NCBI RefSeq assembly: GCF_030013595.1
Contig: NZ_CP122768.1
From: Escherichia coli
GTDB taxonomy: Bacteria; Pseudomonadota; Gammaproteobacteria; Enterobacterales; Enterobacteriaceae
DNA length: 64,000 nt
Reading direction: 5' to 3' (one strand)
Both the position numbers and the translations under genes were made by a program. The notes beneath the pieces are model-generated. The model was not told the origin of the DNA, made no database searches, and saw nothing but the letters and a program-made list of their open reading frames with translations. Below are positions 1-6,500 of the stretch, one piece after another. Each line of letters opens with the position of its first letter. The stretch's first letter is position 1.

Positions 1-736
<736 letters not shown>

Positions 737-762
737 AACTTAGTTCGTTTTAAAGATTCTGC

Positions 763-787
763 AGACACTGTCTGCAGAATTCGAAAT
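763..787. repeat. Near-perfect 25-bp palindrome (ATTCTGCAGACA C TGTCTGCAGAAT) in the convergent nanQ/yhcG gap
   Basis: Read directly: 11-bp arms around a single central base; core CAGAC-N-GTCTG shared with the three palindromes inside yhcG; no flanking T-run. Confidence 0.6.
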
Positions 788-795
788 TGCTGAAA

Positions 796-1923
796 TTATC
801 GGCGTCTATAGCCTTCCTCTAGCACCGCCTGTGTTCGAACGAGTTCATCCGCGAGTCGTTTTTCATCAGGTAGTTGCATCTTATATTCACTCGCCAGAAC
901 GGTGTTAGGCAAACCAGCCAGTGCATAATGCGCTTCTCCGACTCCTTTCTCTGCACAGAGAATCAGACCGATGGGCGGATTTTCATCCGGTAGCGTCCAG
1001 TGCTCTTTGGCGTAGTTGAGATACATATTCATCTGTCCGGCATCGCTATAGCTAAATTTGCCCACTTTTAGATCGACGATTAGCAGGCAGCGTAAACGGC
1101 GGTGGAAAAACAGCAGATCGACCCGAAACCAGTTGTCATCAATGCGTAACCTTCGCTGCCGACCAACAAAGGCAAAATCATCCCCAAGTTCCAGCATGAA
1201 ATCCATCAGGTGGTTGATCAGCGCCTCCTCAAAATCGGATTCTGAGTATTCATCTTTCAATTCCAGAAATTCGAGCACAAAGGGATCGCGTATCGCCTGC
1301 TGCGGAAGAATATGCATCTCGGCAGGAGCGTGTTGTTGCAGCATGGCTGATTTATCATGTGACAGTAGTGTTCGCTCATAAAATTGGGTCGCAATTTGCC
1401 GCTCTAGCTGGCGGACAGACCAACCACAGCGGAGCGTCTCTTTTTCATAAAAGCTGCGGGCGTCAGCGTTTTTAACGGAAAGTAGACGGACGTAGGTGGA
1501 CCAGGGCAGGGGGAAAGATTTGGCAGACAGCGTCTGCCAAATCTTTGCCGATGGGAATTCTGCAGACGGTGTCTGCGGCATTCCCAATGGTGTTAATTCG
1601 CCAGACACTGTCTGGCGAATTTCAACATGTTGAAAAAAGAGGTAAAAAAGCCTCATTTGGCGTAAGTTTTTTGCAGAGAACCCACGCTTATACCTTAGAC
1701 TTAAATCCTTTGATAGTCGCTTGATTAGCTGCGCACCATACGCAGCCCTGGCCTCACCGCCTTGTTCAAATTCGACAATTCGTCGGCCAATTTCCCTGTA
1801 CGTCGCGGTCATTAACGCGTTAACGCTACGTACCGTTTCCGTTCGGGCGCTATCGACCAGATGAATAATGCCGTCGTGGATTTGCTGGTAGCCTGCTGTG
1901 GTTCTCTCTGAGAGCGATTCCAT
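796..1923 (-). CDS. yhcG: DUF1016 / PDDEXK nuclease-like protein YhcG
   Basis: 375-aa ORF; matches YhcG in length and sequence; C-terminal half contains a PD-(D/E)xK-like motif (…LLIVDLKVGKF…). Confidence 0.85.
   Translation of the reverse strand: MESLSERTTAGYQQIHDGIIHLVDSARTETVRSVNALMTATYREIGRRIVEFEQGGEARAAYGAQLIKRLSKDLSLRYKRGFSAKNLRQMRLFYLFFQHVEIRQTVSGELTPLGMPQTPSAEFPSAKIWQTLSAKSFPLPWSTYVRLLSVKNADARSFYEKETLRCGWSVRQLERQIATQFYERTLLSHDKSAMLQQHAPAEMHILPQQAIRDPFVLEFLELKDEYSESDFEEALINHLMDFMLELGDDFAFVGRQRRLRIDDNWFRVDLLFFHRRLRCLLIVDLKVGKFSYSDAGQMNMYLNYAKEHWTLPDENPPIGLILCAEKGVGEAHYALAGLPNTVLASEYKMQLPDEKRLADELVRTQAVLEEGYRRR
1517..1621. repeat. Three tandem hairpin palindromes inside the yhcG coding sequence (12-15-bp arms, 3-nt loops, shared CAGAC-NNN-GTCTG core)
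   Basis: Read directly: 1517-1543 GATTTGGCAGAC-AGC-GTCTGCCAAATC (perfect); 1553-1585 GGGAATTCTGCAGAC-GGT-GTCTGCGGCATTCCC (2 mismatches); 1595-1621 AATTCGCCAGAC-ACT-GTCTGGCGAATT (perfect). In frame, encoding a low-complexity segment (…TPLGMPQTPSAEFPSAKIWQTLSAK…). Confidence 0.7.
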
Positions 1924-2106
1924 TATCTGTCCCTTTTTATGGCGCTGTGTTGAATAATGGAATCAGCTATACGCCGGGCATCTGCCGGTAACAATCCAGA
2001 TGAGCGTATTACATTGGTTTTCTTCAGATTATGCGAGGCGCTTTCCAGAAAGAAAGGAGAATTTCAGCGCCGACTCTTTTCTGAGGAGGCGGCGCTGGGA
2101 CAGAGC

Positions 2107-3537
<1,431 letters not shown>

Positions 3538-6500
3538 TTACTGCGCCTGCACGCGCAACTCTGCTGCGCTACGACTACGGTGACCCAGCAGTGCTTTTAC
3601 ATCACTGGACTTCGGTTTAACCAGCGCAAATTTAGTGGCGAAGGTTGACCAGTTCGCCAGAATCTCTTCACCACGCTGAGAACCGGTATGCTGCACATGC
3701 TCGGTGATAAGTCCACGCAGATGCTCTTCATGGATCGCCAAATCGTCAACGCTTAAGACCTCGACCAGTTCCGGGTTAACGCGTTTGCGGAAATCGCCGC
3801 TTTCATCGAGAACGTAAGCGAAGCCGCCAGTCATGCCCGCGCCGAAGTTAACGCCGGTTTTACCCAGAATACAGACAATACCGCCCGTCATATATTCACA
3901 GCCGTTGTCGCCAATGCCTTCTACCACGGTGATAGCACCGGAGTTACGCACGCCGAAACGTTCACCCGCGCGGCCTGCGGCATACAGACGACCACCGGTC
4001 GCGCCATACAGGCAGGTGTTGCCGATAATACTTGCTTCATGGCTGCGGAAGGCTGAGCCAACCGGAGGGCGAATGGCGATTAAGCCGCCCGCCATGCCTT
4101 TACCGACATAGTCGTTGGCATCACCGGTCAGGTACAGTTCCACGCCGCCCGCGTTCCACACACCGAAGCTCTGGCCTGCGGTGCCGTTGAAGTACGCTTT
4201 GATCGGATCGGCTGCCAGACCCTGATCGCCGTGCGTCTGGGCGATATAGCCTGAAAGCGACGCGCCGACAGAACGGTCGGTGTTGCGAATATCGAACCAG
4301 AAGGTTTTGCTCTGACGCTCATCGACAAACGGTTTTGCCTGTTGCAGCAACTGTGCGTTCAGCAGGCCGTTATCAAACGGCGGGTTGTTTTCGGTACAGT
4401 AGAGCGCCTTACCTGGATGCGGCTCAGCGGTCTCCAGCAGTTTCGACAGCGCCAGTTTCTGCTGTTTGGCGGTGAAACCGTCCAGCTCTTTCAGCAGGTC
4501 GGTGCGACCAATCAGATCCACCAGACGCGTTACCCCCAGCTGTGCCATCAGCTCGCGGGTTTCACGGGCGATAAACTCAAAGTAATTAGTCACCTTGAAC
4601 GGCAGGCCGTGATAGTGATTCTTACGCAGTTTGTCATCCTGAGTTGCTACACCCGTCGCGCAGTTGTTCAGGTGGCAAATACGCAGATATTTACAGCCGA
4701 GCGCCACCATCGGACCGGTGCCGAAGCCGAAGCTTTCTGCGCCGAGAATCGCCGCTTTGATGATATCGACACCCGTTTTCAGGCCGCCATCGACCTGCAA
4801 ACGAATTTTATGACGCAAGCCGTTGGCAACCAGCGCCTGCTGGGTTTCCACCAGACCGAGTTCCCACGGACAGCCTGCGTATTTCACCGATGAAAGCGGG
4901 CTTGCGCCGGTGCCGCCGTCATAGCCTGCGATGGTGATTAAATCGGCATAAGCTTTCGCCACACCGGTCGCGATGGTGCCTACTCCCGGTTCGGACACCA
5001 GCTTCACGGAGATCATCGCTTTCGGGTTAACCTGCTTGAGGTCGAAAATCAGCTGCGCTAAGTCCTCGATAGAGTAGATATCGTGGTGCGGCGGCGGGGA
5101 GATCAGCGTCACGCCTGGCACGGAATAACGCAGTTTGGCGATGTACGGCGTGACTTTATCACCTGGCAACTGACCGCCTTCGCCCGGTTTCGCGCCCTGG
5201 GCGACTTTAATCTGAATGACGTCGGCATTGACCAGATACGCCGGAGTAACCCCAAAGCGACCGGAAGCCACCTGCTTGATGCGCGACACTTTGTTGGTGC
5301 CGTAGCGTGCCGGATCTTCGCCGCCTTCACCGGAGTTAGAGTTGCCGCCGATGCTGTTCATCGCTTCAGCCAGCGCCTCGTGGGCTTCCGGGCTTAACGC
5401 GCCGATAGACATCGCAGCGGTATCGAAGCGTTTAAACAGTTCGCTTGCCGGTTCAACATCAGCAATGTTGACCGCGTTTTCACCCGGCGTAATTGCCAGC
5501 AGATCGCGCAGCGTGGTTGCCGGACGCTCATTAACCAGCTTCGCGTATTCCTGATAGTCGCTGTACTCGCCGCTCTGTACCGCCTGCTGCAGTGTGCGCA
5601 CCACGTCCGGGTTGTAGGCGTGGTATTCGCCGCCGTGCACATATTTCAGCAGGCCGCCCTGGCTGATGGGCTTACGCGCCAGCCAGGCACGTTTCGACAG
5701 ATTCAGCAGATCCTGCTGGAAGTCTTCAAAGCTCGCCCCGCCAATGCGGCTAACAGCGCCCTGGAAGCACAGGCCTACGACATCATCGTGCAGACCGACC
5801 GCTTCAAACAGTTTCGAGCAGCGGTAAGAGGCGATGGTGGAGATGCCCATTTTGGACATGATTTTGTACAAGCCTTTGTTGATGCCGTTACGGTAGTTGA
5901 GCATCACGGTACGATAATCTTTGGCAATCGCGTGGGTGTCTACCAGGCGGCCCAGCGTTTCATAGGCAAGGTACGGATAAATAGCCGTCGCACCGAAGCC
6001 CAGCAACACGGCGAAATGGTGCGGATCGCGGGCGCTGGCGGTTTCGACGATGATGTTGGCATCGCAACGCAAGCTTTGATCGACCAGACGGGTCTGGATC
6101 GCGCCAACCGCCATCGGAGCCGGAACCGGCAGGCGATCTTTAGCGATATTCCGGTCGGAGAGCACCAGCAGCACGGTGCCGCTACGTACCATTTTTTCGG
6201 CTTTGTCGCACAGCTCTTTGACCGTCGCTTCGAGCGTGGTTTTGGTGACGTCAAAGGTTATATCCAGTGTATCTGCGCGGTAGTGCTCCTCTTTCATCGT
6301 CGTGAGCTGTTTGAAATCGGAGTAGAGCAGAATCGGCGATTTAAAACTTAAACGGTGCGCCTGGCCCTCTGCTTCACAGAAGACGTTCATTTCACGCCCG
6401 ATGCTGGTGGCGAGCGACATAACATGCGCTTCACGCAGTGGGTCGATTGGCGGGTTAGTCACCTGGGCAAATTGCTGGCGGAAGTAGTCGTAAATAATGC

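Follow-up and report, generated by a model that had tools for sequence, protein, structure and literature searches.

A palindrome inside the yhcG nuclease gene, apparently ancient and kept at the nucleotide level, is tandemly duplicated in Escherichia coli

The yhcG gene of Escherichia coli contains three tandem palindromes within its reading frame, and a fourth lies just past its stop codon. We have analysed these palindromes in a 64,000-nucleotide stretch of E. coli DNA (assembly GCF_030013595.1, contig NZ_CP122768.1; hereafter the window) and in homologous genes of the YhcG/DUF1016 nuclease family. Our comparisons indicate that the palindrome itself is the conserved object, kept at the nucleotide level through changes in both arms and the choice of silent sites, and that the peptide IxQTxSxE is largely the translation product, or passenger, of this palindrome. 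Judging from its distribution, one unit is ancestral to the whole family across phyla. The explanation we favour, with some confidence, is that YhcG/DUF1016 genes carry an ancient nucleotide-level palindrome that acts as a cis site in DNA and was tandemly duplicated in E. coli.

The sequences and coordinates of the palindromes are given in Table 1. An earlier note on this DNA had described three tandem palindromes inside yhcG at 1517-1621, and both the sequence and a repeat search confirmed them. The same note had placed a fourth palindrome past the stop codon at 763-787; it exists, but it spans 756-780, with its core at 762-774. The three internal units form a coding tandem repeat. They are arranged head-to-tail and in frame, with a start-to-start spacing of exactly 39 bp (13 yhcG codons), and their copy number varies between strains. 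The internal units lie shortly before the LSWSHY codons, their axes falling on codon position 1, and were set in codon register by hand when the 33-nt windows were cut. The palindrome of unit 3 can be extended to 1511-1549 at 94%, and unit 2 has one mismatch fewer in K-12 than in the window strain. The segment with the three palindromes encodes the peptide EIRQTVSGELTPLGMPQTPSAEFPSAKIWQTLSAKS, for which the earlier description 'Pro/Ser/Thr-rich' is only moderately true. Tandem Repeats Finder reported nothing for positions 1400-1750, because the units are only 72-79% alike.

Table 1. Coordinates of the palindromic units and of other features in the window.
Feature	Coordinates	Strand	Details
yhcG coding sequence	796..1923	-	375 aa; DUF1016_N and YhcG_C PD-(D/E)XK nuclease domains
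Palindromic unit 1 (gene order)	1595..1621	-	AATTCGCCAGACA-c-TGTCTGGCGAATT; perfect 13-nt arms, 1-nt centre; encodes (E)IRQTVSGE(L)
Palindromic unit 2	1553..1585	-	GGGAATTCTGCAGAC-ggt-GTCTGCGGCATTCCC; 15-nt arms, two mismatches; encodes GMPQTPSAEF
Palindromic unit 3, beside LPWS codons	1517..1543	-	GATTTGGCAGAC-agc-GTCTGCCAAATC; 12-nt arms, 3-nt centre; encodes KIWQTLSAKS
Relic of yhcG-like coding sequence with fourth palindrome	752..798	-	palindrome 756-780, ATTCTGCAGACA-c-TGTCTGCAGAAT
Patch differing between two E. coli allele classes	1390..1686		centred on palindromes
yhcH/nanQ	272-736	+	
gltD	2107-3525	-	

The core CAGACNNNGTCTG occurs four times in the window against an expectation of 0.05, and none of 100 shuffles reached four occurrences. 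A 161-nt single-stranded stretch folds as three hairpins, with z = -8.0 for RNA and z = -9.9 for DNA. We built a family covariance model (R1) from 93 units. Given that these include the three internal units of E. coli, the relic past the stop codon is the sole independent match in the window. Unit 1 scored 41.7 bits (E 5e-11), unit 2 31.9 bits, unit 3 37.4 bits and the relic 38.6 bits, the E values of the four copies ranging from 1e-7 to 5e-11. The next-best match in the 64 kb, at 54881-54923, reached 17.8 bits and was judged to be a chance imperfect inverted repeat; translated by eye, it appears to lie inside the open reading frame (ORF) of a DEAD-box helicase.

Two sets of family loci were examined for similar palindromes. 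The first comprised 80 genome loci from Proteobacteria, Acidobacteria, Bacteroidota, Firmicutes, Cyanobacteria, Planctomycetes and archaea, with a 12-sequence alignment as query, and the second comprised 80 viral-contig loci, down to 29% amino acid identity. In the first set, a palindrome with 7-21 paired positions precedes the conserved LSWSHY anchor in 73 of the 78 loci in which the anchor was located. Perfect hairpins of at least 7 bp are concentrated there, with 88 of 237 falling in the 200 nt before the anchor of these 3-4-kb loci. A strong palindrome (score of at least 8) was found at 113 of 136 distinct loci, which come from bacteria, archaea and viral contigs. Zero, one, two and three units are found in 13, 95, 26 and 2 genes, respectively. 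Tandem amplification has taken place in several lineages, E. coli among them. The commonest unit spacings are multiples of 3, with 39 and 36 most frequent. Of 94 units, 92 have the palindrome axis on codon position 1. At the protein level, the homologues show one to several IxQTxSxE-like peptides just before LSWSHY.

The palindrome consensus is R-A-W-W-NNN-CAGAC-R-S-Y-GTCTG-N'N'N'-W-W-T-Y, and the corresponding peptide consensus is I-x-Q-T-[LVPA]-S-[GAD]-[EKQ]; QTxS is part of the majority consensus of the family alignments. The information profile is symmetric, with a conserved A at -12, A at -5 and C at -2, while positions -9 to -7 are nearly free but complementary. Immediately before the centre stands a purine (the Thr codon is ACA in 59 cases, ACG in 13, and never ACC or ACT), and immediately after it a pyrimidine. 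The centre base is C in 69 units and G in 53, and the loop triplets come in reverse-complement pairs.

Evidence for a constraint on the nucleotide sequence comes from synonymous shuffling. Codons were resampled according to each gene's own usage, and the shuffled genes were searched in the same way as the natural ones so that selection bias is avoided. In the 171 nt before the anchor, the natural sequences had a best-hairpin score of 10.4 and the shuffles one of 5.3 (78 loci), and in 46 of these loci none of 200 shuffles reached the observed score. A control region of the same genes gave 5.07 and 5.04, respectively, and none of 75 loci was significant. The viral loci replicated the result: 57 loci, down to 29% amino acid identity, scored 10.2 against 5.2, and 31 of them were not matched by any of 200 shuffles.

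The pattern of substitutions points in the same direction. Both sides of the palindrome have changed in 12 of 13 pairs among the 93 aligned units, with 244 compensated cells compared to 92.6±9.2 in shuffles, a count that is illustrative since the units had been preselected as palindromic. The NNN pairs use GC, CG, UA and AU. There are fully compensated alternative cores that encode their own peptides: GAGAC/GTCTC (ETxSR), CGAATC/GATTCG (SESLIRK), CACGC/GCGTG (HAxRD), GTATC/GATAC (VVSLIRQ) and CTACAC/GTGTAG (YTVCR). Within the units, W goes with AK, R with GE, V with AQ, G with DQ and F with GK, an apparent amino acid covariation that is due to codon complementarity. Three viral loci (L151-L153) contain the same DNA palindrome in another frame, in which it encodes EFARQCLTN. 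Silent-site complementarity, covariation and the reading in another frame together argue that the DNA shapes the protein at this site, and not the reverse. The suspicion voiced in the earlier note, that the segment is not constrained by the protein only, is thus supported by the synonymous-codon tests, the compensatory changes and the palindrome read in another frame. The note had also reasoned that palindromes invariant in distant genera, with conserved amino acids and no other genomic copies, would indicate a purely protein-level constraint; the motif is indeed present in distant genera and there are no other genomic copies, but the constraint is still not purely at the protein level.

In which form might the palindrome act? 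We counted mismatches in the interior of 156 distinct hairpins comprising 1742 Watson-Crick pairs and found 20 G·T, 37 A·C and 41 other mismatches. G·T has no advantage over A·C, and this speaks against an ordinary mRNA stem and in favour of an element at the level of DNA. An A-T pair beside the centre was observed 60 times, compared to 27.6 expected. ACA is preferred also where pairing is impossible, so that the A-T excess points to a sequence preference and not to stem stability. Because the pairing is strictly Watson-Crick, we take the element to operate probably at the DNA level, or at any rate in a manner symmetric for the two strands.

The fourth palindrome is non-coding and begins 16 nt past the yhcG stop codon (796-798). 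Read in the yhcG sense, the sequence directly after the stop is FQQFRILQTVSAES, and 40 of 46 nt are identical to nt 288-333 of Citrobacter yhcG. The fourth copy is therefore a scrap of yhcG-like coding sequence. Its centre base (768 in the window) is C in the window, K-12, ETEC4079 and 2013C-3342, and G in O157 strain 272 (L001:269). Such flips between C and G are the outcome expected of spacer inversion by template switching. E. coli strains without yhcG (L005:2485-2551) retain one perfect palindrome, AAATTCGCCAGACACTGTCTGGCGAATTC, in a 67-bp spacer between nanQ and gltD. The arms of this solo palindrome are identical to those of unit 1, and its flank on the nanQ side is orthologous to the relic at 756-780. 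In Salmonella and Citrobacter the gene order is gltD-yhcG-codB(-codA), with one palindromic unit and no relic scrap. The idea that a second palindrome beside the gene is conserved in the family was dropped, as one is seen only in E. coli and at one Lachnospiraceae locus; Salmonella and Citrobacter are without it. Integron attC sites are imperfect palindromes of 57-141 bp with RYYYAAC...GTTRRRY ends and extrahelical bases, located at the 3' end of a cassette. The relic is a perfect 25-nt palindrome without such ends and is homologous to yhcG coding sequence, and an attC site was rejected.

Under the explanation we favour, the palindrome would persist as a putative cis-acting DNA hairpin or cruciform site within the gene, its arms being kept matched probably in part by template-switch copying within the palindrome. 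The encoded nuclease, or machinery that controls the nuclease, may recognise the site or be regulated through it, a suggestion we make tentatively. Going further, a large nuclease family might carry an in-frame DNA hairpin or cruciform that is recognised by its own product or control machinery and is inherited and co-evolves with the enzyme; this we consider unlikely. If self-recognition were true, the palindrome would be the self-control or trigger site of a candidate anti-phage system, given the match of YhcG to PDC-S02 (see below).

Several points weigh against our explanation. An in vivo hairpin or cruciform, and binding or cutting by a protein, are putative, and the proposed function is conjectural. 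It may be that template-switch copying is enough to preserve the palindrome, without any function. No clear palindrome is present in 13 of the 136 loci, and the palindrome is therefore not indispensable. In multi-unit genes the second-best unit is weaker than the best (7.8 vs 11.5), and unit 2 of E. coli is imperfect. The unit nearest to LSWSHY is predicted to be helical and Q, T and S are fairly conserved, suggesting that some protein-level constraint coexists with that on the DNA. Only the synonymous-shuffle tests are free of the bias that affects the pair count. As for the contrast between G·T and A·C, it is drawn from 57 mismatches (p = 0.03), and codon constraints could have biased it.

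The main rival is a functionless quasi-palindrome that perpetuates itself: an ancestral sequence in a tolerant linker, maintained by template switching from arm to arm, with the peptide simply following. Homogenisation of inverted-repeat arms by template switching is an established mechanism (PMC7202029, PMC8604942), and much of what we observe fits it. The arms pair by strict Watson-Crick rules and G·T is not preferred; the tandem units have arm sequences of their own and each is self-complementary; even the non-coding relics are still perfect; and the region is predicted to be disordered. Spacer inversion would account for the nearly equal use of C and G at the centre, the reverse-complement loop triplets and the one C/G flip in a relic. 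What such a process does not readily predict is retention of a palindrome at one fixed position in ~83% of very divergent bacterial and archaeal genes, with the core and outer bases conserved even where the frame differs. Moreover, one unit remains strong where second units decay, a pattern suggestive of selection on one copy or more. On balance we think it unlikely that the palindrome is functionless, but this is the alternative to be taken most seriously.

An mRNA hairpin that causes ribosome pausing or governs mRNA stability or processing (for instance by RNase III), and so tunes the production of a potentially toxic nuclease, would be compatible with the very stable hairpins predicted for the RNA (z = -8.0) and with the existence of covariation, and a position at a domain boundary would suit co-translational folding. 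The sense strand, however, tolerates G·U no better than A·C, and the excess of A-T beside the centre points to a sequence preference. A search of Rfam with positions 1-4000 gave no match at E<=1. Neither did a terminator and promoter scan return a terminator-like call at any of the four palindromes, and none of the four has the structure of an intrinsic terminator, a G+C-rich hairpin followed by a run of T or U. The family consensus reads AAATC/T on the 3' flank, with no U-tract. The element is also found in archaea, most of which, to our knowledge, lack bacterial RNase III. For these reasons we regard a role as an mRNA hairpin as improbable.

Variation among E. coli strains is extensive. The yhcG region was matched in 5078 of 5426 complete E. 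coli genomes, and the 105-bp block with the three units is an indel polymorphism among strains, a point that the earlier note had proposed to check. O157 strains lack 78 bp, corresponding to two units, and one lineage lacks 80 bp and is frameshifted. YhcG protein clusters of 349, 362 and 375 aa correspond to one, two and three units, with a parallel series of 357/358, 370 and 382 aa. The extra units of E. coli are local tandem duplications of the 39-bp (13-codon) unit, one to three being present depending on the strain. A divergent E. coli allele class has two clear units and one degenerate unit, and the arms of unit 1 differ between the allele classes by a compensated change from CGC..GCG to GTG..CAC. 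The two classes (window and L002) differ at 92 positions within a patch of ~300 bp and at 27 positions in the remaining 1.1 kb of the ~1.4-kb alignment. This patch (Table 1), with the palindromes at its centre, has the look of a recombinant segment that was imported, and the peptide it encodes is similar to that of Pseudocitrobacter-type alleles.

Larger rearrangements also end at the palindromes. In E. coli 214-4 (L088:1538-2010), and identically in BL21, a foreign segment of 473 bp has taken the place of everything between the nanQ stop and the palindrome's outer edge, joining exactly at window position 1517, and the N-terminal third of yhcG remains. The segment is found in 726 E. coli genomes and contains a 101-aa ORF annotated 'transposase', which gave no match in an NCBIfam search. 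It is single-copy in these 726 genomes, for which reason the idea of an active insertion sequence (IS) behind the BL21-type junction was dropped. In E. coli LR-71-1 (L086:3820-3900), IS1 is inserted into the right arm of the 1517-1543 palindrome, at about window position 1539, and the 5' part of yhcG up to gltD is missing. Several independent rearrangements thus end at palindromes: gain and loss of units, the 473-bp segment, IS1, and the loss of yhcG that leaves one palindrome. The palindromes of E. coli seem also to behave as fragile, recombination-prone points.

Given this record, one may ask whether the palindrome is kept as a mutational contingency or recombination site that allows easy variation, switching off or exchange of the gene. 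The variation from one to three units, the frameshifting 80-bp deletion that is widespread in O157, the recombinant patch centred on the units and the rearrangements ending at palindromes would all be in keeping with this idea, as would the reported enrichment of DUF1016 genes beside phase-variable restriction-modification loci (PMC9881135). Against it, most family members have a single unit and second-order selection is weak; the instability may be a mere side effect of palindromic DNA, and the location of the gene inside Type I restriction-modification operons accounts for the enrichment near inversions. We therefore give a contingency site little credence.

In single respects the palindrome resembles several known systems, but it fails their testable defining features. 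Rickettsia palindromic elements (RPE), said to have been described by Ogata and co-workers in 2000, are reportedly inserted in frame into protein-coding genes. Like them, the yhcG unit is translated palindromic DNA, with a tolerated peptide segment that originates at the nucleotide level. RPE are mobile, 100-150 bp long and scattered over many unrelated genes of one genus, whereas the yhcG unit measures 25-33 bp and is found in one gene family, at a fixed position, across bacterial phyla, archaea and viral contigs. Instead of copies in unrelated genes that are present or absent by comparison with orthologues, we find at least one unit at the same site in 113 of 136 homologues, and the sites outside YhcG genes are YhcG relics or rare solo copies.

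The repetitive extragenic palindromes (REP) and bacterial interspersed mosaic elements (BIME) of enterobacteria are likewise short (20-40 bp) hairpin palindromes, sometimes in tandem, and are possible hot spots for IS insertion and rearrangement. According to one account (PMC3733652), REPs are extragenic and high-copy, have GTAG/CGTC end tags and are linked to RAYT transposases. The stem of a REP unit is imperfect. The yhcG palindrome, by contrast, is coding and occurs at one to four places per E. coli genome, the matches listed being all at the yhcG locus or in the nanQ-gltD spacer; it is therefore not a dispersed repeat. The four copies in the window are all at yhcG, and there is no GTAG/CGTC tag in their sequence. 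The earlier note had proposed looking for further genomic copies; those among the matches listed all lie at the places just named, and the fourth palindrome is itself the yhcG-like scrap described above.

Similarities also exist to quasi-palindromes that are hot spots of template switching in E. coli and yeast, where arms are made identical and spacers inverted. Both the strict complementarity of the yhcG units and the C/G flips at their centre fit such homogenisation of arms. Quasi-palindrome hot spots are, however, mutational phenomena of individual genes, whereas the yhcG palindrome has been kept over deep time at a single site of a protein family. Another parallel is provided by intragenic operators such as lac O2 (inside lacZ) and the purB roadblock operator, as they are palindromic DNA inside a reading frame that constrains codons and acts at the DNA level. 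Operators require specific half-site bases, with no need for complementarity at positions that are not contacted, and are not duplicated with different arms. A target of the homing-endonuclease type was dropped as a candidate because the site is intact inside the gene.

The view that IxQTxSxE is needed by the protein and the palindrome is incidental, or that a REP- or RPE-like mobile palindrome was inserted in frame, is contradicted by the evidence and strikes us as highly improbable: the motif is conserved across the family and in its majority consensus, and the appearance of the sequence had suggested an inserted array to the earlier note, but silent sites are chosen for complementarity, differing peptides (SESLIRK, VVSLIRQ, HALRD, YTLCS) still coincide with palindromes and more than one reading frame is seen, the matches listed for E. 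coli are confined to the yhcG locus and the nanQ-gltD spacer, the covariance model finds nothing else convincing in the window, and one unit appears to be ancestral to the family and is not polymorphic for presence, the extra units being local tandem duplications.

What was known already is the length polymorphism of yhcG as a typing marker. The gene is a length marker of the LSPA-6 typing scheme for E. coli O157:H7, which includes a 392-bp allele with an AT deletion; the typing papers treat yhcG as a length marker only, and mention neither the palindrome nor its conservation in the family (PMC3514354, PMC8733641). The LSPA-6 locus of yhcG is the same sequence as the palindromic units, that is, a coding variable-number tandem repeat. 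Of its length differences, that of 78 bp corresponds to two 39-bp units gained or lost, and that of 2 bp to an AT deletion at the junction. CVN001, an MLVA locus, may be the same repeat. The palindromic units thus explain the variation of the O157 typing locus in 39-bp steps, and also the clustering of rearrangements there. Our literature searches on yhcG/DUF1016, palindromic PDDEXK and quasipalindromes returned typing papers and neighbourhood statistics, and did not find a description of the palindrome. Conserved protein motifs are normally read as a sign of protein function; QTxS instead seems to be the shadow of a DNA palindrome. As a conserved nucleic-acid structural element inside a coding region, the palindrome is unusual in its reach over a whole family and in dictating a family motif. 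It also provides a tangible way into an uncharacterised nuclease family, one often found in restriction-modification and defence islands.

The protein encoded by yhcG has both domains of the YhcG/DUF1016 nuclease family in N-to-C order: DUF1016_N (Pfam PF17761, 1.8e-39) at residues 19-184 and the YhcG_C PD-(D/E)XK nuclease domain (PF06250, 1.8e-56) at residues 208-360. It matches the PADLOC candidate defence family PDC-S02 at 1e-133, and a phmmer search found 22,183 representative clusters. The nearest fold to the predicted nuclease domain is the nuclease domain of archaeal NucS/EndoMS. A sequence search of the PDB with YhcG found no relative, and an NCBIfam search gave no match. In the AlphaFold model, residues 97-125 are a low-confidence coil, with a predicted local distance difference test (pLDDT) score of <50 at residues 103-118, and unit 3, beside LPWS/LSWSHY, is part of a helix of moderate confidence (residues 126-136).

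This part of the window is the nan-glt junction of E. coli, with the end of nanK followed by yhcH/nanQ, yhcG, gltD and gltB. In this strain the start of yhcG is 184 bp from the end of gltD (1924-2106 in the window), and in K-12 (L003) yhcF adjoins yhcG. The block found there in K-12 we take to be gltF-yhcA-F.

The viral contigs provided a number of further observations. At ~25-36 nt before the anchor, L151, L152 and L153 contain ATTCGCCAGACAGTGTCTGACGAAT, which is identical to unit 1 of E. coli in 24 of 25 positions; the corresponding proteins are only ~36% identical to YhcG. Perfect consensus palindromes, ATTnnnCAGACAnTGTCTGnnnAAT (with complementary nnn), are present in five other viral contigs (L089:5813, L095:3424, L110:1342, L114:3207 and L099:8089), and no homology to YhcG was detectable near them. 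Either these palindromes are relics of great age or the same element has been put to use independently. In L117, two direct repeats of 179 nt (4686-4864 and 6008-6186), which are 94% alike, flank a two-gene module. Each repeat is a degenerate DUF1016 fragment with two palindromes, and a tyrosine integrase adjoins. This arrangement may have arisen by insertion into, or duplication of, the palindrome region.

Finally, the palindromes may break assemblies or gene calls, and in metagenomes they may create apparent gene fragments. The palindrome of L091 is located ~15 nt from the end of an 8,918-nt contig, and those of L092, L094, L108 and L116 are near the end of the fetched stretch, which may not be the contig end. 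Among the PADLOC PDC-S02 profiles and representative proteins there are many N- or C-terminal fragments, with breaks near residue 100-150.

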